A stretch of 64,000 nucleotides of DNA from an uncultured delta proteobacterium (GTDB taxonomy: Bacteria; Desulfobacterota; Zymogenia; Zymogenales; Zymogenaceae): contig CAWBYW010000011.1 in the NCBI GenBank assembly GCA_963792965.1, forward strand, positions 32,001-96,000, given 5' to 3'. The notes beneath the pieces are model-generated. The model searched no databases and was not told where the DNA came from. It saw only the letters and a program-made list of their open reading frames with translations. A program made the position numbers and the translations under genes. Below, in pieces: positions 20,580 through 35,077 of this stretch. How positions within the stretch are numbered: the stretch's first letter is position 1; every line of letters starts with the position of its first letter.

Positions 20580-20867
20580 TTACTGTACCTTATTCGGAGA
20601 CGACGTCGTGTTCGCCGGGTTCGTGTCGTTATGGATGAGCTGGTCGATATCCTTATGCTTTGCCGGACACGATTCGGGAAGGACGATCCTGACCGCCTCC
20701 CATCCGATACCCGCGACGAGGAGGCCGAGCTCCCGACCCCATCCGAGCACCGAGCCGGGCGCGCCGGCCCCGGTTGCTGCCCCACCTGTCGGCGCCGTTG
20801 CCGTCACGCCGATCAACGGAAAGGCCAGCAGCAACACGAGAGCCAGAAAAAGGGCTTTAGTTTTCAT
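20580..20867 (-). CDS. small exported hypothetical protein
   Basis: GGGAG RBS; signal-peptide-like N-terminus, Gly/Ala/Thr linker. Confidence 0.55.
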   Translation of the reverse strand: MKTKALFLALVLLLAFPLIGVTATAPTGGAATGAGAPGSVLGWGRELGLLVAGIGWEAVRIVLPESCPAKHKDIDQLIHNDTNPANTTSSPNKVQ

Positions 20868-24440: not shown

Positions 24441-25382
24441 CTACTTGCCGGGGAGAAGCTCTCTAAAATAGGCAATGGTCTGTTCCACACCCCGCTCGAA
24501 GGAAACGGTTGGCTCCCAGCCAAGCTCCTCTTTCGCCTTTGTGATGTCGGGGCACCTCACCTTCGGGTCATCGGCGGGAAGCTCCTTGAAGACGATGGAG
24601 GAAACGCTTCCCGTCAGCTCCTTTATGATGCGGGCGATCTCAAGGACGGCCTTCTCCTCGGGGTTACCGAGATTCATCGGGCCTGTATAGACGGGGGATG
24701 CCATGAGAGCAATGAGACCGTCGACCATGTCGGAGACATAGCAGAACGACCGGGTCTGACTACCGTCCCCGTACACCGTGATGGGTTGCCCCCCGAGGGC
24801 CTGAACGACGAAATTACTCACCGCCCTCCCATCGTCTTTATCCATCCTCGGTCCATACGTATTGAAGATCCGGGCGATCCGGATATTGACGCCGCGCTGC
24901 TCGTGATAAGATATCATGAGGCTTTCGGCCGTTCGTTTCCCCTCATCGTAGCAGCTTCGGATCCCGTTGGGATTTACGTTGCCCCAATATGATTCCGACT
25001 GGGGGCAAAAAGGCGGGTCACCGTACACTTCCGAGGTGGAGGTAAAAAGGATCCGCGCGCCCGTCTTTTCGGCAAGCCGCAGCGCCGTGTCGGTCCCGAT
25101 AACGCTCGTGAGTGTCGTCATGACGCGGTCCCGCTGGTAGTGCACGGGGGAGGCGGGGCAGGCCAGGTGGAAGATCTCGTCGATTCGAAGATCGATCGGA
25201 TCACACACGTCGCCCTCTATTAACGAAAACCGAGGGTTTTTCAGAAGCCGGCCGATATTCTCCCGGCTGCCCGTGTAGAAATTATCGAGGCAGACGACCT
25301 CGTTTTGCGCGTCAAGGAGTTGCTTTGACAGGTGGCAGCCGATGAACCCGGCGCCGCCGGTGACGAGAATCCGCCTGGTCAC
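24441..25382 (-). CDS. UDP-glucuronic acid decarboxylase (UDP-xylose synthase) family
   Basis: [51 protein letters not shown]. Confidence 0.93.
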
Positions 25383-26698
25383 TTCTTTGTTCTGTTCTCC
25401 GGCCTGCCGAAGCAGTGGTAGGTGAAGCCCAGTCGCTCCAACTCTTCGCGATGGTACTGGTTTCTCCCGTCGAAGATGATGGGCCGCTTCATCAGTCTCT
25501 TCATACGGTCAAAATCGGGGTTTCGAAACTCGTTCCACTCGGTGATGAGACAAAGGGCATCGGCGCCCTCCAAGGCCCCGTATGCGTCTGAGGCATAATC
25601 AATTCGATTCTTGAAATGCGCCCTGAACCGATCCATCGCCGCGGGATCGAAAACGACAACATGCGCTCCGAGGCCGAGCAGCCGCTCGACGATGAAGAGG
25701 GCCGGCGCCTCCCGGATGTCATCGGTGTTGGGCTTAAACGAGACTCCCCAGAGCGCGAGGGAGAGCTCCCCGATATTCCCCCCGAAATGCGTAACGATCT
25801 TCTCAACGAAAACATCCCGCTGGCGGTCGTTGACCGACTTAACCGCCCGGACGAAATCCACAGGGCATCTAATGCCGTCGGCCGTCCTTATGACGGCGGA
25901 GATATCTTTCGGCAGGCAAGACCCGCCGAACCCCAGGCCCGGGAAGAGGAACTTGGGCCCGATCCGCGAATCGGAGCCGATCGCCCGCCGAACCGAGTCG
26001 ATGTCCGCCCCAAGGCGGTCGCAGAGGTTCGCCATCTCGTTCATGAAGGAAATCTTGGCGCCCAAAAAGGAGTTGGCGGCGTACTTGGAAAGCTCGGCGG
26101 AGCGAATATCCATGATCAGGATGGGATTGCCCGTGCGGGTGTAGGGTGCGTAGAGCTCTTTCATGACCTCGGCCGCCCGGTCATTTTCCGTCCCGATGAC
26201 GACGCGCTCGGGTTTCATAAAGTCATCCACCGCGGTCCCTTCTTTCAGAAACTCGGGATTGGAGACGATGTCAAAGGGATGGCTTGTTTCCTTTCTGATG
26301 ATATCGGCAATCACCTCGGTCGTGCCTACGGGGACGGTGCTCTTGGTGATGATAATCTTGTAGTCGTTCATCGCCTCCCCGATTGAGCGCGCCGCCTGCT
26401 CAACCTGGGTGAGGTCCGCGTTTCCGTCACCGCCCGGAGGAGTCCCCACGGCGATGAATATCAACAGCGAGTTTTTGACACCGTGAGAAACCTCGGTCGT
26501 AAACGAGAGCCTTCCCCGGGAGGTGTTCCGATGAATCAGGTCGGAAAGCCCCGGCTCGAATATGCCGATTTCCCCATCGTTGAGAAGCTTGACCTTCTTT
26601 TCATCGCTGTCCACACAGATGACGTCGTTGCCCATATCGGCAAGACAGCTCCCGGAAACGAGGCCCACGTAACCTGCCCCGATCATACAGATCTTCAT
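25379..26698 (-). CDS. ugd: UDP-glucose 6-dehydrogenase
   Basis: [44 protein letters not shown]. Confidence 0.95.
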
Positions 26699-26937
26699 AA
26701 AACCCCCGAGAGAAAGAACAAGAGCCGAGATAACTCTTTCTTTATTCTAATCGGATCGCATCGGCAAAGTCAATAGAGAAAGCTCTCGATTTTGGAACGA
26801 CGGGCAGTCGATGCGCGGGCGGTTTCAATACGGAGCCATGCCTCGAGGTCCATGCTCGTTTCCATGTGCGGCCGATTCGGCCGTGAGACGTGTTACGAAT
26901 TGAATATTCATAACACACCGATATCATTACATTTTTC

Positions 26938-26965
26938 TTGACTCGGCCCTTCTCTTTGGTATAAT
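26938..26965 (+). promoter_or_regulatory. sigma-70 promoter of peptide/radical SAM operon
   Basis: TTGACT-N16-TATAAT with extended -10 TG (26957-26958). Confidence 0.75.
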
Positions 26966-27052
26966 TATATACAAGAGGTTTCTTCGGGGAGGATCGCCCC
27001 CCGGAGAGCTTACCGAACTAATCGTTTTGCCGTACCGGCAAAGGAGGAGGCC

Positions 27053-27115
27053 ATGAAGATCAAGAAGCTGGAAAAAACCGTCAAGGGACTGTGCAAGTGC
27101 GGTCGTTCCTGCTGA
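27053..27115 (+). CDS. putative RiPP precursor peptide MKIKKLEKTVKGLCKCGRSC (20 aa)
   Basis: AAGGAGGAGG RBS directly upstream; host-like codons; Lys-rich leader and CxCxxxC end; first gene before a radical SAM/SPASM enzyme; below ORF-track cutoff. Confidence 0.8.
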   Translation: MKIKKLEKTVKGLCKCGRSC

Positions 27116-27137
27116 ACATTCGCACATCACAAACCAT

Positions 27138-27170
27138 AACGGGCCGAAATCGCTTCGGCCCGTTGCTTTT
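27138..27170 (+). terminator. intrinsic terminator/stabilising hairpin after peptide gene
   Basis: AACGGGCCGAA-ATCGC-TTCGGCCCGTT then GCTTTT. Confidence 0.8.
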
Positions 27171-27232
27171 GGGCCGCCCGCCTCAGGTGGAGAGGGGTGG
27201 CCCGGCGTCATTCATTACGGGGAGGCCGGCCT

Positions 27233-27601
27233 TTGTCGATCGATAAGAAGACATTTTCGGACTACATTTGCAGGCCGTTTTGCGTCTTCTTCAAGGAAGG
27301 TCAGAAAGAAGAAATGGCCTGCGGCGCGGCCGTGACGGCCGCGCGGATAATAAGGTTGAGGAATATCCGGACGGGAGAGATCGTCTCGCCTGTCGGCGCA
27401 CAAGCCGCCACGGGAAAAGACGGTGACCTCCTCGACTCGCTGGTCTGCAGATATTGCCCCTTCGTTATCGATGGGTGCGACTTCCGTTCGCTAAAGCCCC
27501 CGCCTGATGCCGTTCCGTGTGGAGGATACATCCTGCTCGAGTTGCTCCTTTCGCGCGGCGTCATAACCCGCCAAGATATCGAGGACCTCGGCCGTGGGTG
27601 A
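27233..27601 (+). CDS. Cys-rich accessory protein (about 122 aa, 7 Cys)
   Basis: GGAGG RBS and TTG start; CRPFC..C and CRYC..C..CGG; overlaps radical SAM start. Confidence 0.8.
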   Translation: MSIDKKTFSDYICRPFCVFFKEGQKEEMACGAAVTAARIIRLRNIRTGEIVSPVGAQAATGKDGDLLDSLVCRYCPFVIDGCDFRSLKPPPDAVPCGGYILLELLLSRGVITRQDIEDLGRG

Positions 27602-28751
27602 TGCCGACTGGAAAAGGGGCTATCTCTTGCTATCCCGGAAAGCCGCCCTCAAACGGCTGGAGGAGCCCACGGTCTATATCACAGATCAGGACGAGCTCTA
27701 TGAGGTGAACGACGAGGCGTTTGCGTTCCTGTCCCGTTGCGACGGGACTATGCGTGGGGGCGACCTGACTGACGACGATGGATTTGTGACGTTCTGCCTT
27801 GCCGAGGGGATCCTCCTGACCCGTCCGAAACCCGCCGGGCGACGGGTCGTATTTGCGGCGTCGCCCGTGCCGTCTCTTCGCTACCTTGAGCTCCAGCTTA
27901 CCTCCCGCTGTAATCTTGCCTGCCTGCACTGCTATCAGGGTGATCGGACGGCGATTGACCTTCCGCTGGACACTGCCCTGAGGATTGCTCGAGAGTTTGA
28001 GGCAATGGCCGGGCTCCGACTCCTCATATCGGGCGGGGAGCCGTTGCTCTATCCCGGTCTCTTCGACTTCCTGGACGAGACGGAGGACCTCGCGTTGCGG
28101 AAGATCCTCATCACCAACGGGACGCTGATTAATGTGAGGAACGTCCGAAGACTCAAAGCGGACGAGATCCAGTTTTCCCTCGATGGATGGGAACGGGGAC
28201 ACGAACGGATCAGGGGGAGGGGAAGCTTTTCGAAGGTTATGCGGGGAATCGAGGCGGCGCTGAGCGCGGGAATCGCCGTCTCGGCGGCGACAATGGTCCA
28301 TCGGGGTAATCTCGATGAATTTGATCGAATGAACGCCTTCATCGAAAAGATCGGCGCCGTGGGATGGGGGATCGATCTTCCGTGCCCTACGGGGAGGTTT
28401 GATGCACACTCCGGGATTGTAGTATCACCGCAGATCGCGGGCCCCCTCATGCGGTACGCCTTCGGGGGGGGAAACCATGCCACGCCCGGCTTTGCCTGCG
28501 GGCACCATCTGATGACGGTGCTTCCGACGGGTGGCGGTGTAAAGTGTGGATTCTACGCCGACGATATCCTTGGGGACGCCGCCAAGTCGCTGGGCGGGTG
28601 CTGGCGCTCCATGAAGCATGTCCGGATCGATGAGCTCGAATGCCGTGGATGTCCTCATCTGGAAGAGTGCGGGGGCGGGTGCCGTTTCCGGGCTCCTGGA
28701 CCGCTGGCTCCCGATCCAGTTATGTGCGCGGCCTTTGGGGTGTATAGGTAG
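27594..28751 (+). CDS. radical SAM/SPASM maturase with N-terminal RRE/PqqD-like domain
   Basis: CNLACLHC, SGGEPL, TNGTL, SLDG; C-terminal C..C..CxxCxxxxxCxGGC..C; N-terminal ELYEVNDEAFAFLSRCDG. Confidence 0.92.
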   Translation: MGDADWKRGYLLLSRKAALKRLEEPTVYITDQDELYEVNDEAFAFLSRCDGTMRGGDLTDDDGFVTFCLAEGILLTRPKPAGRRVVFAASPVPSLRYLELQLTSRCNLACLHCYQGDRTAIDLPLDTALRIAREFEAMAGLRLLISGGEPLLYPGLFDFLDETEDLALRKILITNGTLINVRNVRRLKADEIQFSLDGWERGHERIRGRGSFSKVMRGIEAALSAGIAVSAATMVHRGNLDEFDRMNAFIEKIGAVGWGIDLPCPTGRFDAHSGIVVSPQIAGPLMRYAFGGGNHATPGFACGHHLMTVLPTGGGVKCGFYADDILGDAAKSLGGCWRSMKHVRIDELECRGCPHLEECGGGCRFRAPGPLAPDPVMCAAFGVYR

Positions 28752-28893
28752 GCACCGAAACGTCGGGAGGGACGCTCTTGCCCTCGGGCGGTGGTCCGTC
28801 TCTCGGGCCTTGCCGGGCGTGGAGCGAGGGGGAAGAATAGAAGGCTTCAATGTGTGGGCCGGTCGGGGCCGCGCGATGAAGAGAAAAGTAAAA

Positions 28894-28922
28894 CCCCCTT
28901 TCCGTAACGACGGAAAAGGGGG
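28894..28922 (-). terminator. intrinsic terminator downstream of pilin gene
   Basis: CCCCCTTTCCGT-AACG-ACGGAAAAGGGGG with an A-tract on its left. Confidence 0.7.
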
Positions 28923-28962
28923 CTTGTTCGGGTATCCACTGCGCAGTGGCAGGTATCGTCAC

Positions 28963-29412
28963 CTAGTTCTCTACATCGTTGAAGGTATTGAGGATTTTAT
29001 TCCCGCCCATCCCCGGAAGCGAGGGATCGGAAACCACTTTCCACGTGTCCCTAAACGCATCCATATCGAGATTTGCGGAGCACGTCGCGAAGAAATTCTG
29101 AGGATTCGCCGGCGGATAGGGAACCAGCTCCCAGCTCTTGTAGAATTTCGCCTCGGCGGGCGGATCGATCCCGAGGATGCGATAGTCGGCGGTGTAGACG
29201 CTCTTGTCGGCATAATAGGACATTTCGTTGGTCCAGATGCCGCCCAAGAGCACCCGTGCCTCCGACTGCATGGCGCCGGCCTTGTAATGGACGTAGAGCG
29301 GGATCGCAAAGGACGCGAGGATCGCCAGGATCATGACGACGATCATCAACTCGATGAGGGTAAACCCTCTCCGTGATCTGATTATTGTCTTGATTTTATC
29401 GTTCGTATTCAT
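28963..29412 (-). CDS. type IVa pilin (PilA-like)
   Basis: Class III signal RRG|FTLIELMIVV, E5, P22; 133-aa mature protein. Confidence 0.93.
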   Translation of the reverse strand: MNTNDKIKTIIRSRRGFTLIELMIVVMILAILASFAIPLYVHYKAGAMQSEARVLLGGIWTNEMSYYADKSVYTADYRILGIDPPAEAKFYKSWELVPYPPANPQNFFATCSANLDMDAFRDTWKVVSDPSLPGMGGNKILNTFNDVEN

Positions 29413-29801: not shown

Positions 29802-30815
29802 ATGGCAAAAAAAGATGACAAGAAGAAGGTACGGCTCTTGGTAATTCTCACCGCCGTCGCGATAGCCTCAGTGTCGTTCTTCCTCTATATCAGTTATGCC
29901 CCTTCGGGAAAGGCCAAATCCTTTGAGGAGTGCAAGTTTCTCTTTGACAATAAGAACTATGACGCATGCATAAGCTGCTTCAATGAATATATAAAGACCA
30001 ACCCCGATTCCGAGGCCATCAGGATGAGGGGGATGTCTTACTATAGCACTAAGCAGTATGAGGGGTCCATCAAAGATTTTACCTCCTACCTGGAGAAAGA
30101 CTCGACGAACCGGAACATCTATTATCAGCGCGGGCTGGCCTACGAAAATCTCGGGAAGGTGAAGGAGGCCGAAGGTGATTTCAAGAAGGCATGCGAATTC
30201 GGGTACGACAAGGCGTGCAATCACATCACCGGATCGGTCGGGGGAGGGCTCTTGACGGAGGACACCCAGAATCGGAGCGCGGCGGATTGGTTCAAGATCG
30301 CATCCGATTTCCTCGATAAGGGAGATTACGAGAACGCCGTCAGCTTTTTTGGTCGGGTCATCGAGCTGGACCCCAAGATGACCAATGCCTATCTCCTCCG
30401 TGGGCTCGCTTACCGAAACCTGGAAGATTATAAAGAGGCCATGGACGATTATAATAAGATCCTCTCCATTGACCCAAATTCGGCGGCTGCATACAATAAC
30501 AGGGGCGTCGCCTACTGGAGGCAGGGGAAATTCAAGGAGGCGCTGTCCGATTATAATAAAACGATATCCCTTGCTCCGAACGACTATATCGTCTATAACA
30601 ATCGGGGCGTCGTCAACTTCGAGATGAAAAACTATACCGATGCACTGGCCGATTATAACAAAGCCATCGGCCTCAATCCGAAATTCGCCCAATCGTATTG
30701 GAATCGGGCCGTTAATTACTTGAAGCTGAACAAAAAAGATGAGGCAAAAAAAGATTTCAAGTCTGCGTGCGACCTGAAGATCGATGACGCCTGCAAGGCG
30801 ATGGGAAGTCTGTAG
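29802..30815 (+). CDS. membrane-anchored TPR protein
   Basis: N-terminal TM; repeated AY.NRG..Y...G.Y.EA..DYNKAI...P units. Confidence 0.92.
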   Translation: MAKKDDKKKVRLLVILTAVAIASVSFFLYISYAPSGKAKSFEECKFLFDNKNYDACISCFNEYIKTNPDSEAIRMRGMSYYSTKQYEGSIKDFTSYLEKDSTNRNIYYQRGLAYENLGKVKEAEGDFKKACEFGYDKACNHITGSVGGGLLTEDTQNRSAADWFKIASDFLDKGDYENAVSFFGRVIELDPKMTNAYLLRGLAYRNLEDYKEAMDDYNKILSIDPNSAAAYNNRGVAYWRQGKFKEALSDYNKTISLAPNDYIVYNNRGVVNFEMKNYTDALADYNKAIGLNPKFAQSYWNRAVNYLKLNKKDEAKKDFKSACDLKIDDACKAMGSL

Positions 30816-31184: not shown

Positions 31185-32408
31185 GTGGACGAGATCACCC
31201 GTCTGAAAGAAGAGCCTCCGTCGCCCCCGAAAGAAGAACCCCCTTCGGGCCAATCCCCTCTATTATCCGCCGAAGAGAGCCAGCCGGAGCTTTTCTCGAC
31301 GATCTCACAGAATTCACTTACAAACGGAAACGGTTTCACCTTCATCGAGGGCGCCGACGGCGCAACGTCTCAGGCGCCGATCATCGCCCCGGAGCTGTTG
31401 AGTCGCCAGAGGATCGCCGCGGACCGGAGCTATCCCCTCCATGAACGCATCGAGGCCTTCGAGGATATCATCGATTCCGAGGTAGGCGATACGACACTGT
31501 CCCGAGCGCGTAATCTCGAGCGGGAGGTGGGGCTTCGGCAGATCTATTTCAAATTCGAGGGAGGAAACCCCACCGGCACCCAGAAGGATCGCATCGCCTT
31601 TGCCCAGGCGATGGACGCCATGCGCCGGGGATTTGACGCCATCACCGTGGCGACGTGTGGTAACTACGGCGTGGCGGTGGCGCTTGCCGCCTCCATGGCG
31701 GGGCTTAAGTGCTACGTCTACATTCCCGAGGGATACAAGGCAAAGCGCGTCCGGGAGATGCAGGACTACAAGGCCGAGATCATCCGGGTCCGGGGAGACT
31801 ACGAGACCTCCGTGGAGGTATCCCGAGAGCGCGCCATGAAAGACGAGATTTACGACGCCAACCCCGGGGGAGAGAACACCCCTCTCCAGCTTTCCGCCTA
31901 TGGCTCGATCGCTTACGAAATCTACGACGAGCTCCGGGACGCCCCCGCCGTCGTGGCGGCGCCGGTATCCAACGGGTCGACACTTGCAGGAATCTATAAA
32001 GGCTTCCTGAGCCTCTACCGCAGGGGCAAGACCTCGCGGATACCCCGTATGGTAGCGGGCTCATCTCATGGCAAGAACCCGATCATCAGGGCCTTCATCA
32101 AGAACGTCCCTCACTGTGAGGACATCGAGCCCAAAAGGATTCGGGAGACCGCCGTCAACGAGCCGCTCATCAACTGGCACTCGATCGACGGAGACCTGGC
32201 GCTGGACGCCATCAGGGTAACCTCCGGCTGGGCCCAGTATGCGAGTGACAAGAGCATGATCTCCTACGCGAGGCTCATGAAAGATCGGGAGGGGCTCAAC
32301 ATCCTGCCGGCTTCGACGGCGGGGCTTGTGGTGCTCCTGGAGCAGCATAAGAGGGAGCCGATGCCGGGGGACCGATACGTGGTCATCCTCACCGGGAGGA
32401 GATCATGA
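31185..32408 (+). CDS. PLP-dependent fold-type II enzyme, threonine synthase-like (start uncertain)
   Basis: KFEGGNPTGTQKDR, TCGNYG, PVSNGST. Confidence 0.88.
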   Translation: MDEITRLKEEPPSPPKEEPPSGQSPLLSAEESQPELFSTISQNSLTNGNGFTFIEGADGATSQAPIIAPELLSRQRIAADRSYPLHERIEAFEDIIDSEVGDTTLSRARNLEREVGLRQIYFKFEGGNPTGTQKDRIAFAQAMDAMRRGFDAITVATCGNYGVAVALAASMAGLKCYVYIPEGYKAKRVREMQDYKAEIIRVRGDYETSVEVSRERAMKDEIYDANPGGENTPLQLSAYGSIAYEIYDELRDAPAVVAAPVSNGSTLAGIYKGFLSLYRRGKTSRIPRMVAGSSHGKNPIIRAFIKNVPHCEDIEPKRIRETAVNEPLINWHSIDGDLALDAIRVTSGWAQYASDKSMISYARLMKDREGLNILPASTAGLVVLLEQHKREPMPGDRYVVILTGRRS

Positions 32409-33499
32409 CGGGGCTGCCCGAGGGGAACGCGATCGTCTATTGCGAGGGGGCCTTCGGGACGACATACGGAAAGACGGCGCACGGTCTGGTCCGTCGCACT
32501 CTCCGGTATCACGTCATCTCGGTGGTGGACAGCACGCTTTCCGGAAGGGACGCGGGGCGACTTATCGACGGGAAAAGCGCGGGTATCCCGATCTTTGCCG
32601 ATATACCCGAGGCCGTGGCGGCATCCCGAAACACCGCCGATCCCGCCACCCACCTCGTCATCGGCCTTGCCACCGACGGCGGTTACATCCCCAACAACGT
32701 CAGAGTGGACATAGCCCATGCGATAACCCTCGGGCTTTCCGTCGATTCGGGACTGCACGAATTTATGACCGAGGACGATACTCTCGTGGGCCTGGCGCGG
32801 CAGTATGGCGTCACGCTGAGGGACATCCGAAAACCGCCGCCGCGAAAGGAGCTCCACTTTTTTTCGGGCAAGATCTCAGATGTGACCTCTCTGATCGTCG
32901 CCGTCCTCGGCACCGATTCGGCCGTCGGGAAGCGGACGACGGCCTGGCTGGTGACCGATGCCCTGAGGGAGCGGGGGTATAGCGCCGAGCTTATCGGCAC
33001 GGGGCAGACCGCGTGGATGCAGGGGGTCGCGTACGGGATCATGCTGGACTCGCTGGTCAACGACTTCGTTGCCGGGGAGATCGAGCATGCCGTCTGGAGG
33101 GCCTGGAGCGAGAAACGGCCGGACGTCATCATTATCGAGGGACAGGGAAGCCTCATGAATCCGGCATACCCCGGCGGGTTCGAGATCCTGGCCGCGGCAA
33201 GGCCGGACGCGGTCATCCTCCAGCACGCCCCGGCCCGCGCCGAATACGACGGCTTCCCCGGCTATCCGCTGCACCCTATAGAAAAGCAGGTCAAGGCCGT
33301 CGAATTCCTCTCCGGGCGGAAGGTTATCTGTGTGACGGTTAACCACGAAGGGATGAGACCGGCGGACGTGCCGGCCGCCTGCGCCGAGATCACGAAAAAG
33401 ACGGGTCTTGGCGCTTCCGACGTCCTGATTTCCGGCGCCGGGTCGGTGGCCGACGCCCTTGTGCCCTACCTCCAGCGGAAAAAGGCGGGCGCGAGATGA
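32405..33499 (+). CDS. DUF1611 family protein (DgcN-like)
   Basis: GKTAHGL.R, SGLHEF, GTD.AVGKRTT, GTGQT, DFVAG.IE, EGQGS; ATGA overlaps at both ends. Confidence 0.9.
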   Translation: MTGLPEGNAIVYCEGAFGTTYGKTAHGLVRRTLRYHVISVVDSTLSGRDAGRLIDGKSAGIPIFADIPEAVAASRNTADPATHLVIGLATDGGYIPNNVRVDIAHAITLGLSVDSGLHEFMTEDDTLVGLARQYGVTLRDIRKPPPRKELHFFSGKISDVTSLIVAVLGTDSAVGKRTTAWLVTDALRERGYSAELIGTGQTAWMQGVAYGIMLDSLVNDFVAGEIEHAVWRAWSEKRPDVIIIEGQGSLMNPAYPGGFEILAAARPDAVILQHAPARAEYDGFPGYPLHPIEKQVKAVEFLSGRKVICVTVNHEGMRPADVPAACAEITKKTGLGASDVLISGAGSVADALVPYLQRKKAGAR

Positions 33500-35077
33500 G
33501 GCCCGAGATCGTCTCTACCGGGCAGACCGCGCGGCGGGAAGACCCAATGAACGGTGATTCCCATCCCGATACCGACCCCTTCCGTTGTCTTTCGGTCATC
33601 GACCGCCTCGAGGTGGGGCCCGTCAGGGTCGAGAAGCGCCGCCTCATCTGCCCGTATACCGTTTTCCAGGGAGAGTCGACCGATACCTTCCGGCTCATCT
33701 ACCGGTGGGGAGAGGACGTCTTCGATCCCTCGGAGACTGCCGACCGGAACCTCGCCGGAATGATCGCGGCCCAGGTCGCGCTTAACTACGGACTCTTCTG
33801 CGATGAGATTCGGTTTTGCGGTCCCTTTGACGAGCACGACCGCCGCTTCCTCGCCGAGATGGCCGAGAACACCTCGTGCGAGATCTATGTCAAGAAGTTC
33901 CTCCAGCCCAATCCCTTCCTCTTCGGGGCGGCGGCGTCGCTTCCCGTGATAAGGCGGCCGAGCTACCTCCGTGCCCGCCTTTCGTTTGAGGACATGTCGC
34001 CACGCAACATCCGAACGACCCGCAAAACCAGCGGATGGAGGACGGACCCAAGAAAACACGCCGTCCTCTCCAGCGGCGGGAAGGATAGCCTCCTCACCTT
34101 CGGGATCCTTGACGAACTGGGACAGGAGGTATCCCCGATCTTCATCAACGAATCGGGGCGGCACTGGTTTACCGCCCTCAACGCATACCGGTCTTTTACA
34201 GAGCGCGTCCCTCGCGCCGCCCGGGTCTGGACAAACGCGGACCGGCTCTTCTGCTGGATGACACGGCGCCTCCCCTTCGTCCGCCCCGATTTTGGCCGGT
34301 TGCGGTCGGACGAATACCCAATCCGCCTCTGGACGGTGGCGGTCTTCCTCTTCGGGGCGCTCCCCTTGATCAGGAAGAGGGGTATCGGAAGGCTTTCGCT
34401 CGGCGACGAGTTTGATACGACACGCTTTGCCCTCCATCACGGGATCCCCCACTTCGACGGCCTCTTTGACCAGAGCCTCGTCTTCGACCGCGCCCTGACT
34501 GCCTATTATAGGAGCAAGGGGTGGGGGATCGACCAGTTCTCGCTGCTGCGGCCGCTTTCCGAGCTCCTCATCCAGAAGATCCTCTCCCTGCGGTATCCCG
34601 AGCTCCTTTCCGTACAGGTCTCATGCCACGCGGCCCACATCAGGGGGGGGCGCGTCTACCCGTGCGGGAGGTGCGAGAAGTGCCGGCAGAATCGTCGGCA
34701 TGATGACGACGTTCGGAGCCGACCCGTCCGTTCTCGGCTATTCGGGGACACAGGTTGAGCAGTGCCTGAGGAAGATCGACAAGATGGGGGTGGACCAGGA
34801 GGGTGAAGGAGCCGAGCATCTCTATTTCCTCCTGAAGGGGCTCGGGAAGACTTCGGGGGGCTCGCGTACGGTGCGGCCGCACCCTGAGGTGGAAAAGCTC
34901 AGGTTCGATGCGCGGGTATCCCCGGTCGACGCGATACCCTCCGATCTCTCGGACCGGGTCTATGACATCTTGGGCCGTTATGCCCGGGGGACGGTTATGT
35001 GGGACGGCTCGGCGTGGGTCGATCAGGGACCTTCGCACACGGTCGCGTCGGCCGGCGGCCACTTAAAAAAGGGTTAG
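33496..35077 (+). CDS. PP-loop ATP-pyrophosphatase-like protein (MurL/QueC-like), frameshift near 34690
   Basis: LSSGGKDSL PP-loop, SCH and CGRCEKC; continues in ORF 34700-35077. Confidence 0.7.

Follow-up and report, generated by a model that had tools for sequence, protein, structure and literature searches.

Organization of the locus

The analysed stretch, referred to here as the window, comprises 64,000 nt of contig CAWBYW010000011.1 from an uncultured delta proteobacterium, and coordinates are given in it unless another contig or locus is named. Between positions 26938 and 28751, with all parts on the forward strand, lies a compact group of genes encoding a 20-amino-acid (aa) peptide, a Cys-rich protein and a radical S-adenosylmethionine (SAM) enzyme with a SPASM region. 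The locus probably constitutes a peptide-maturation module of the type that generates peptides made on the ribosome and modified after translation (RiPPs), in which the 20-mer would be the precursor, the Cys-rich protein an accessory factor, and the enzyme a maturase combining a domain like the RiPP recognition element (RRE) with radical SAM and SPASM domains. We assign this reading a probability of about 0.7. The elements of the module are as follows.

26938..26965 (+): sigma-70-type promoter (TTGACT, 16-nt spacer, TG-TATAAT)
27041..27050 (+): Shine-Dalgarno sequence of the peptide gene, AAGGAGGAGG, 2 nt ahead of the ATG
27053..27115 (+): putative precursor peptide gene, 20 aa, MKIKKLEKTVKGLCKCGRSC; ATG start, assigned from homologue conservation
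27053-27091 (+): proposed leader, peptide residues 1-13
27092-27112 (+): proposed core, peptide residues 14-20, LCKCxxSC-type
27138..27172 (+): GC-rich hairpin (12-bp stem-loop at 27138-27164) with GCTTTTGG behind it, in the gap that separates the peptide gene from the enzyme genes
27233..27601 (+): Cys-rich partner gene, 122 aa; TTG start, GGGGAGG 7 nt upstream
27594..28751 (+): putative radical SAM/SPASM maturase gene, 385 aa; GTG start
27621..27824 (+): RRE-like N-terminal domain, enzyme residues ~10-77, assigned from the model, its superposition and predicted contacts
27909..27932 (+): CxxxCxxC motif of the SAM-binding [4Fe-4S] cluster (C106/C110/C113), assigned from PF04055 and invariance
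28497..28727 (+): SPASM region with seven invariant Cys, putatively holding two auxiliary clusters, assigned from the alignment and the match to the PqqE SPASM region

The promoter agrees with the consensus at 11 of 12 positions and carries the extended -10 TG; a scan of the region returned three promoter-like sites, against 0.7 expected from shuffled sequences. The TTG start of the partner is consistent with the alignment of its homologues, and the GTG start of the enzyme overlaps the partner stop codon by 8 nt. A preliminary description of this DNA had located the promoter, the ribosome-binding site, the 20-aa open reading frame (ORF), the Cys-rich gene and the overlapping enzyme gene, and each of them is read in the sequence exactly where it had been placed. 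The same description reported an 11-bp hairpin; the hairpin is present, but it has 12 pairs.

The 20-aa ORF is a conserved gene

A profile built for the peptide returned exactly one match in the 3.36-Mb genome (E about 2e-8 to 2.7e-8). Conservation of the ORF was assessed in three sets of loci, consisting of seven enzyme orthologues from 41 related genomes (set A), 14 loci from named assemblies (set B) and 24 additional loci from the window's phylum (set C). An intact or edge-cut peptide ORF adjoins the orthologous enzyme in 41 of these 45 loci. In set A, the enzyme orthologues present 41-100% identity and all seven loci contain the peptide ORF, always 20 aa long and of the form MKI[KR]K[VIL]...[LM]CKCxxSC, with the peptide gene lying downstream of the enzyme at one locus. 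Set B originates from a scan of named assemblies that yielded 80 loci, of which 14 (L022-L035) were kept as true orthologues; the other 66, with <=38% identity and partial coverage, were left out as relatives of a generic radical SAM type. The metagenome-assembled genomes (MAGs) behind these 14 loci are labelled as Desulfobacterales, Geobacteraceae, Nitrospirota or Nitrospirae, Dehalococcoidia, Actinomycetota (including Candidatus Solincola), a Methanobacteriota archaeon and one 'uncultured bacterium'.

At 11 of the 14 set B loci, the peptide ORF is complete and adjoins the enzyme. At L023, residues 1-14 of the peptide are visible before the contig ends; L032 retains only a degenerate remnant of the ORF, and no peptide ORF lies close to the enzyme at L025, with intact unlinked copies of the gene being present in the genomes of both. 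Set C presents the ORF at 22 of 24 loci, in one case cut by the locus edge. The contig of L108 begins at the enzyme gene, so that it offers no upstream DNA, and the peptide copy of L124 is unlinked, elsewhere in the genome. The expectation, put forward in the preliminary description, that a short ORF would be conserved together with homologues of the enzyme is thus borne out, since an ORF of the form MK[IV][KR]K...CKCxxSC accompanies them.

The peptide genes also bear the marks of coding sequence. A GGAGG-like site is located 5-10 nt 5' of the start codon in all 18 peptide genes examined from other loci, and the invariant residues are maintained through synonymous codons (TGC/TGT for Cys, AAG/AAA for Lys, TCN/AGY for Ser). 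In an alignment of 16 peptides, M1, K5, C14, C16 and C20 are invariant, and I3, K15 and S19 nearly so. Peptides from other phyla and from the archaeon share 45-80% identity with the window peptide, the whole 20-mer being conserved, and those of Actinomycetota and of the archaeon extend one residue (Gly or Ser) past the last Cys. Nitrospirota, Actinomycetota, Dehalococcoidia and archaeal loci have the peptide gene either downstream of the enzyme gene or in convergent orientation with it, and in some genomes the two genes are unlinked. Judged from its conservation, the 20-aa ORF is a real gene, and its Shine-Dalgarno sites and synonymous changes show the signature of translation.

Several genomes hold more than one copy of the peptide gene. 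Two copies are arranged in tandem just upstream of the enzyme in G223 (C80:20614-20673 and 20780-20839), four genomes (G127, G130, G213 and G070) carry two peptide genes each on separate contigs, and the Nitrospirae-labelled genome of L025 has two unlinked copies. One of the latter two, at L135 (G401:C1:75246-78302), a peptide of sequence VRIRKVTKNDSSICKCHSSC encoded on the minus strand at about locus position 1498-1560, is situated directly upstream of a 332-aa ORF starting MADRILIGHGSGGK, which we take to resemble a HypE/PurM-type protein. In two close relatives with few contigs (L005, G007:C6; L003, G009:C5), the enzyme gene is broken up into two or three frames that overlap, with both the peptide gene and the partner gene left intact; these split frames are either assembly indel errors or recent pseudogenes.

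Co-occurrence and taxonomic distribution

The joint distribution of peptide and enzyme was evaluated in 401 genomes of the window's phylum, with cut-offs of E<=1e-60 for the enzyme and E<=1e-4 for the peptide profile. The enzyme was detected in 44 genomes and the peptide in 42, all of them among those 44, and no match to the peptide profile was obtained in the 357 enzyme-negative genomes. Regarding the two enzyme-positive genomes missed by the profile, the peptide is present by eye in G167 (MTIKKATKKASITCKCKASC), and G225 offers no flanking DNA. In a second sample of 201 genomes, from the phylum of the Nitrospiraceae-labelled locus L033 and with the same peptide cut-off, the enzyme was found in 84 genomes, the peptide in 68 and both in 66. 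This pattern of co-occurrence is much stronger evidence than adjacency alone. The enzyme is single-copy in most carrier genomes, as is the peptide gene. Overall, MAGs of Desulfobacterota-type, Nitrospirota, Dehalococcoidia and Actinomycetota affiliation and an archaeal MAG carry the system, and the peptide and the enzyme, usually accompanied by the partner, occur together in several phyla.

The enzyme falls short of every NCBIfam family cut-off

The enzyme matches the Radical_SAM family (PF04055) with an E-value of 1.6e-21 and 77.6 bits against a cut-off of 29.5, which establishes it as a radical SAM protein, and its C106-x3-C110-x2-C113 motif is invariant in 54 aligned sequences. The SPASM motif is defined as Cx9-15Gx4C ... 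Cx2Cx5Cx3C ... C and binds two auxiliary [4Fe-4S] clusters. The corresponding cysteines of the enzyme (C302-x15-C318, C350-x2-C353-x5-C359-x3-C363 and C378) are likewise invariant in the 54 sequences, and residues 100-369 align to PqqE, including its SPASM region. The enzyme is therefore assigned to the SPASM proteins on its cysteine motif, the invariance of that motif and the PqqE alignment, and JGI names for its homologues include '4Fe4S-binding SPASM domain'.

The NCBIfam scan brought the enzyme close to the cut-off of no family. Its best score, for AhbD (94.6 vs 500 bits), covers the radical SAM core only (residues ~101-280). The heme and heme d1 families NirJ2 (82.3/500), NirJ1 (75.5/650) and NirJ (69.2/515), the cofactor maturases PqqE (54.3/381) and MftC (75.2/265), the cassette families GeoRSP (53.7/400), ScmE (71.7/400) and ScmF (58/400), and the RiPP maturases StsB (73.8/625) and WgkB (77/650) all fell far below their cut-offs in bits. 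Assignment to a cofactor family, which would have spoken against the RiPP proposal of the preliminary description, is accordingly not what the AhbD, NirJ, PqqE and MftC models return. The family to which the enzyme belongs is large, with 1274 clusters at E<=1e-30 among 8000 candidates scored, and its source names are limited to 'radical SAM protein', with or without '4Fe4S-binding SPASM domain'.

An AlphaFold2 model of the enzyme was obtained with a pLDDT (the predicted score of the local distance difference test) of 92. Its structural matches span Z 20-26 and the best of them are RiPP maturases, with a sequence identity to SuiB, SkfB and CteB of only 16-17%. SkfB superposes with Z 26.1 on model residues 15-372 and SuiB with Z 25, aligning 353-356 residues (model 10-385 on chain 1-439). 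CteB (Z 22.8) and anSME are matched only from about enzyme residue 91 onwards. The alignment with SuiB starts at residue 1 of the SuiB chain, and the superposition hence includes its N-terminal domain.

RREs are PqqD-like, winged-helix-like domains in which strand beta3 and helix alpha3 provide the binding site for the leader peptide. The N-terminal domain of the model presents strands at residues 10-13, 17-21, 25-29 and 34-37, and helices at 40-48, 55-58 and 62-70. The RRE that the preliminary description had placed at the N-terminus of the enzyme finds support in the modelled fold, in which some 80 residues of sheet and helices superpose on the N-terminal RRE portion of SuiB; at the sequence level, it drew no match from Pfam or from a PDB profile search. 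The model therefore suggests that the N-terminal domain has the make-up of an RRE, an assignment graded as structural because no sequence model recognises the domain. As modelled, the enzyme probably comprises three domains: an RRE-like domain, a radical SAM barrel and a SPASM domain with two auxiliary iron-sulfur (Fe-S) clusters.

Predicted binding of the peptide

Alignments of the enzyme, the partner and the peptide were folded jointly; the chain scored was the peptide, and three controls were included. The complex obtained a score of 0.84, compared with 0.02 for the best of the controls, with at least 71% contact agreement among runs and a partner pLDDT of at least 58. In the predicted complex, peptide residues 1-11 contact enzyme residues 26-27, 33-39, 41-42, 45, 59, 61, 64, 67-68 and 71, which correspond to the third strand and last helix of the N-terminal domain. 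The basic N-terminal half of the peptide is positioned at the RRE-like sheet and helix, where it forms an additional strand. Residues Cys14 and Lys15 contact enzyme residues 289-296, 302, 318, 358-360 and 362-365, among them SPASM cysteines. As modelled, this is the canonical arrangement of leader on RRE and core at the auxiliary cluster, and it reproduces the division of the peptide into a Lys-rich leader and a Cys-containing core that had been suggested from the letters of the ORF. The predicted contacts make the 20-mer a likely substrate of the radical SAM enzyme.

A Cys-rich partner protein without recognisable fold

The partner protein has 257 representatives in a library of 1.84 billion proteins. 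Its cysteines 13, 17, 30, 72, 75 and 82 are invariant in the alignment, and Cys96 is nearly so. Searches with Pfam and NCBIfam assigned it to no family, and the ESM Atlas returned only clusters named 'hypothetical protein'. Its model is helical (pLDDT 82.5); Foldseek against the PDB gave no match at E<=0.001, and the best VIA-align score against 48,161 chains was Z 3.6. On our reading of the alignment, the protein looks like two copies of one module, composed of a Cx2-3C pair, one or two further Cys and an amphipathic helix, and many genomes encode a single-module partner of 54-100 aa.

At 6 of 24 set C loci, partner and enzyme form a single reading frame with the partner at the N-terminal end, and such fusions also occur in three library representatives (P0224, P0239 and P0310). 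An hhalign comparison of its C-terminal half with the Cx2Cx5Cx3C...C stretch of the enzyme yielded an E-value of 1.9e-4, a probability of 48% and 37% identity over 41 columns. The partner is missing at 6 of 14 set B loci, five of them Nitrospirota-type and the sixth L026, and the peptide persists in those loci or genomes. From this body of observations we infer that the partner is an Fe-S accessory domain of the enzyme, contributing electron supply or an extra cluster, and not a substrate.

Enzymes from loci without a partner (L031, L032, L033 and L025) contain extra Cys in an N-domain loop after a conserved FLxxC, as exemplified by CADEEGCSSEGCD and CSSAEGCDASEADC. These additional N-domain cysteines of Nitrospirota-type enzymes may substitute for the metal site of the partner. 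In G017 (L105:5456-5800), a 114-aa ORF of no known family overlaps the end of the enzyme gene, and in the library protein P0319 (233 aa) the Cys-rich module is combined with a region that weakly matches Cupin_2 (E 2.6e-4). Either the 114-aa ORF or the cupin is a possible lineage-specific extra component.

Operon logic and proposed maturation pathway

Strong hairpins within about 40 nt 3' of the gene, mostly followed by a T run, were read in the folds of about 16 of 18 peptide genes at other loci, and occur whether the peptide gene is upstream or downstream of the enzyme. RiPP loci usually combine abundant short precursor transcripts with fewer enzyme transcripts. In the window, the hairpin that separates the peptide gene from the enzyme genes might weakly terminate or attenuate transcription. 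The strong promoter would drive the precursor gene, and the hairpin behind the peptide stop codon would probably let only part of the transcripts continue into the partner and enzyme genes, which would form a translationally coupled pair. Where the peptide gene lies upstream, this arrangement would generate many short precursor transcripts and fewer enzyme transcripts.

By the chemistry proposed here, the enzyme would cleave SAM reductively to form a 5'-deoxyadenosyl radical, which would abstract a hydrogen from a residue of the core, the conserved Lys15 and Ser/Thr19 being candidates. A core cysteine positioned at auxiliary cluster I would then close at least one intramolecular thioether ring, as in sactipeptides and ranthipeptides. 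In sactipeptides the Cys sulfur is joined to the alpha carbon of the acceptor residue, and in ranthipeptides to its beta or gamma carbon. That the modification consists in thioether formation is a tentative proposal by analogy, to which we give slightly less than even odds.

Conserved neighbours of the module were sought with Pfam in 116 flanking ORFs from 16 loci, and no conserved protease, transporter or exporter was identified, nor any further conserved tailoring enzyme. The absence of an adjacent protease and exporter, which had been pointed out for the window, consequently extends to these loci. Some loose recurrence among the flanking ORFs is shown by TPR proteins, PAS kinases and amine oxidases. 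The lack of a conserved protease or exporter, together with the conservation of the whole peptide across phyla, suggests that the product probably stays within the cell. For the same reasons, a conserved physiological role is favoured over an antibiotic one, and the product probably serves a redox or metal-related function in anaerobes.

Weight of the evidence and alternative explanations

A number of results weigh against interpreting the locus as a RiPP-type maturation module. On the side of the enzyme, the Pfam search listed Radical_SAM only, with no SPASM model at E<=0.01; Pfam searches with the N-terminal 95 aa of six orthologues returned nothing at E<=10, and a PDB profile search with the N-domain alignment produced only a match at the level of chance (E 0.51). 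The thioether reading is drawn solely from analogy with the nearest solved maturases. In calibration, the mark passed by the predicted complex was attained for 58 of 80 complexes of solved structure and for 2 out of 110 pairs that were mismatched; the calibration set contained no protein of fewer than 30 residues. Furthermore, the pass may reflect the model's memory of structures like SuiB-SuiA or CteB-CteA and, because solved complexes of the same kind exist, it may show likeness instead of independent evidence. In the second phylum, 18 of the 84 enzyme-positive genomes lack a peptide match at E<=1e-4, and inspection of five of them revealed the peptide by eye in one and no peptide within ~2 kb in the other four; two genomes in this phylum carry the peptide with no enzyme match. 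Because related genomes do not represent independent observations, the co-occurrence statistics make the case look stronger than it is. The absence of the partner from Nitrospirota-type loci and L026 implies that it is not essential everywhere, and the T run of the window hairpin is weak, with only 4 T.

The alternative with most in its favour is that maturation yields a cofactor or metal/redox ligand derived from the peptide by chemistry beyond simple thioether rings, such as mycofactocin-like C-terminal processing, formation of a heterocycle or thio-ligand, or production of a mini-peptide that binds a cluster or metal. The radical SAM enzyme would then carry out the first committed step, leaving completion of the product to housekeeping enzymes. 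Antimicrobial RiPP cores are usually variable, and the conservation of the entire 20-mer between phyla and in the archaeon, the single-copy status of both genes in most carriers and the lack of a conserved exporter or protease nearby all fit such a product, as does the presence of MftC and PqqE among the better NCBIfam and PDB matches. The CKC/CxC spacing of the peptide is also, presumably, reminiscent of metallothionein motifs. However, the MftC and PqqE scores lie far under the family cut-offs, no further conserved tailoring enzymes accompany the module, and the extra Gly or Ser after the last Cys speaks against chemistry requiring a C-terminal Cys. On balance this alternative is rather unlikely. 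Equally doubtful, in our view, is the more specific proposal that the 20-mer is the scaffold of a widely conserved intracellular redox cofactor or metal/Fe-S ligand, with a status like that of pyrroloquinoline quinone (PQQ) or mycofactocin, made in at least four bacterial phyla and an archaeon by an RRE-radical SAM-SPASM enzyme with an Fe-S partner domain.

The remaining alternatives assign the 20-mer a subordinate role. The 122-aa Cys-rich protein could be the true substrate, in the manner of CrpC and CrpA, with the 20-mer as an accessory or regulatory element; its seven conserved Cys, the translational coupling of its gene to the enzyme and the precedent of radical SAM thioethers on Cys-rich proteins, described in PMC13692751, would accord with this. 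A substrate is nonetheless hard to reconcile with a protein that is fused to the N-terminus of its enzyme at a quarter of the set C loci (6/24) and in three library representatives, is shrunk to 54-100 aa at many loci and absent from 6 of 14 named loci, with the peptide persisting in those loci or genomes, and whose conserved motif resembles the Fe-S-binding SPASM motif; moreover, in the predicted complex it is the peptide, and not the partner, that occupies the RRE groove and lies at the SPASM cysteines. Given the fusions, reduced forms, absences and SPASM-like motif, we judge the partner very unlikely to be the substrate. Less likely still is that the small ORF encodes a cysteine-sensing leader peptide that attenuates the downstream genes through the hairpin, its product having no function. 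The three Cys codons towards the end of the short ORF and the terminator-like hairpin ahead of the enzyme genes would suit attenuation, but in other lineages the peptide gene is downstream, convergent or unlinked, which rules out pure leader-peptide attenuation, and the amino-acid sequence is kept through synonymous changes, including the Cys-free N-terminal MKIKKV. Nor did an alternative antiterminator come to light, although no search was directed at one. Both the gene arrangements and the conserved peptide sequence thus make this explanation extremely improbable, and a precursor role for the 20-mer is preferred.

Relation to known systems

RRE-bearing radical SAM/SPASM enzymes that act on neighbouring peptides are a known kind. 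The closest are SuiB (streptide), SkfB and CteB (sactipeptides and ranthipeptides, SCIFF), which share with the present system a Cys-rich precursor encoded beside the enzyme and, as modelled here, the three-domain architecture with two auxiliary clusters and the binding of the leader on the RRE. The system in the window differs from them in its 20-21 aa precursor (those of SCIFF, SkfA and SuiA are longer), its fixed C-K-C-x-x-S/T-C core, its additional Cys-rich partner of unmatched fold and the lack of a conserved protease or ABC exporter. In the mycofactocin (MftA/MftB/MftC) and PQQ (PqqA/PqqD/PqqE) systems, too, a radical SAM/SPASM enzyme is paired with a short precursor that is highly conserved, and there is no exporter; their RRE-type recognition corresponds to that predicted here, and PqqA and MftA resemble the 20-mer in the conservation of the whole peptide across phyla. 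In contrast to them, the RRE-like domain is fused to the enzyme instead of separate, their peptidase and oxidases are not seen in the flanking ORFs surveyed around the 20-mer loci, and the core is Cys-based. The precursor cores of mycofactocin and PQQ are Val-Tyr and Glu/Tyr, respectively.

A further comparison is provided by CrpC of methanogens (TIGR04463), which PMC13692751 describes as a SPASM radical SAM enzyme with a predicted RRE that acts on its Cys-rich neighbour CrpA, a large repeat protein, generating protein thioethers with a function possibly linked to iron-sulfur physiology. Compared with what is given there, the likely substrate in the present system is the 20-mer, and the Cys-rich protein behaves, as its fusions indicate, like a domain of the enzyme.

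Neither the peptide nor the Cys-rich protein is covered by a Pfam or NCBIfam family, in agreement with the earlier remark that the peptide matched no recognised family. The NCBIfam target-peptide families, including SCIFF, gave no match at E<=10 for the 20-mers of the window and L004 or for the 33-aa extended form of L004, and an exact look-up of 10 extended peptide ORF forms in a collection of 15 billion proteins found none. The peptide gene is invisible to annotation because it falls below the length limits of gene callers. A full-text literature search for peptide sequence strings returned two unrelated papers only, and a search on radical SAM, SPASM and RiPP terms found no description of the system, which the supplementary tables of genome-mining atlases may list unnamed. 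The passages of PMC10288494 and PMC10114670 retrieved by term search contain nothing resembling it.

The module hence looks like a previously undescribed system in which a peptide is modified by a radical SAM enzyme, whose minimal precursors form a new family and whose partner domain is also new. Its unusual features are an uncalled 20-aa precursor conserved over its full length across distant lineages, the absence of export and cleavage genes and a Cys-rich partner whose fold has no match. A cofactor-like or metal-binding product would extend the physiology known for sulfate reducers, syntrophs, Nitrospirota and related anaerobes by one component, and a new thioether topology would furnish a minimal scaffold for peptide engineering. 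With three small genes, the system is directly testable.

Flanking genes and additional observations

The genes on either side of the module are the following.

25379-26698 (-): UDP-glucose 6-dehydrogenase
28963-29412 (-): type IV pilin
29802-30815: TPR protein

Pfam and NCBIfam scans revealed no relation of the flanking genes in the window to peptide export or cleavage. Behind the pilin gene, a strong terminator-like hairpin at 28894-28921 (-), with 12 pairs followed by TTTTACTTTT, closes the convergent gap between the pilin and radical SAM genes. An Rfam search of positions 26600-29000 returned no match at E<=1, which indicates that this region holds no known riboswitch or leader.

Further downstream, three co-directional genes occupy positions 31185-34758 (+), the first two overlapping. 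The first encodes a threonine-synthase-like enzyme dependent on pyridoxal phosphate (PLP), with an N-terminal extension of ~90 aa (NF004996, 431.8 bits vs a cut-off of 266), the second a DUF1611/DgcN-like protein (151.9 vs 480 bits) and the third a 420-aa protein with a faint MurL-like match only. These genes may form an amino-acid-modifying cassette.

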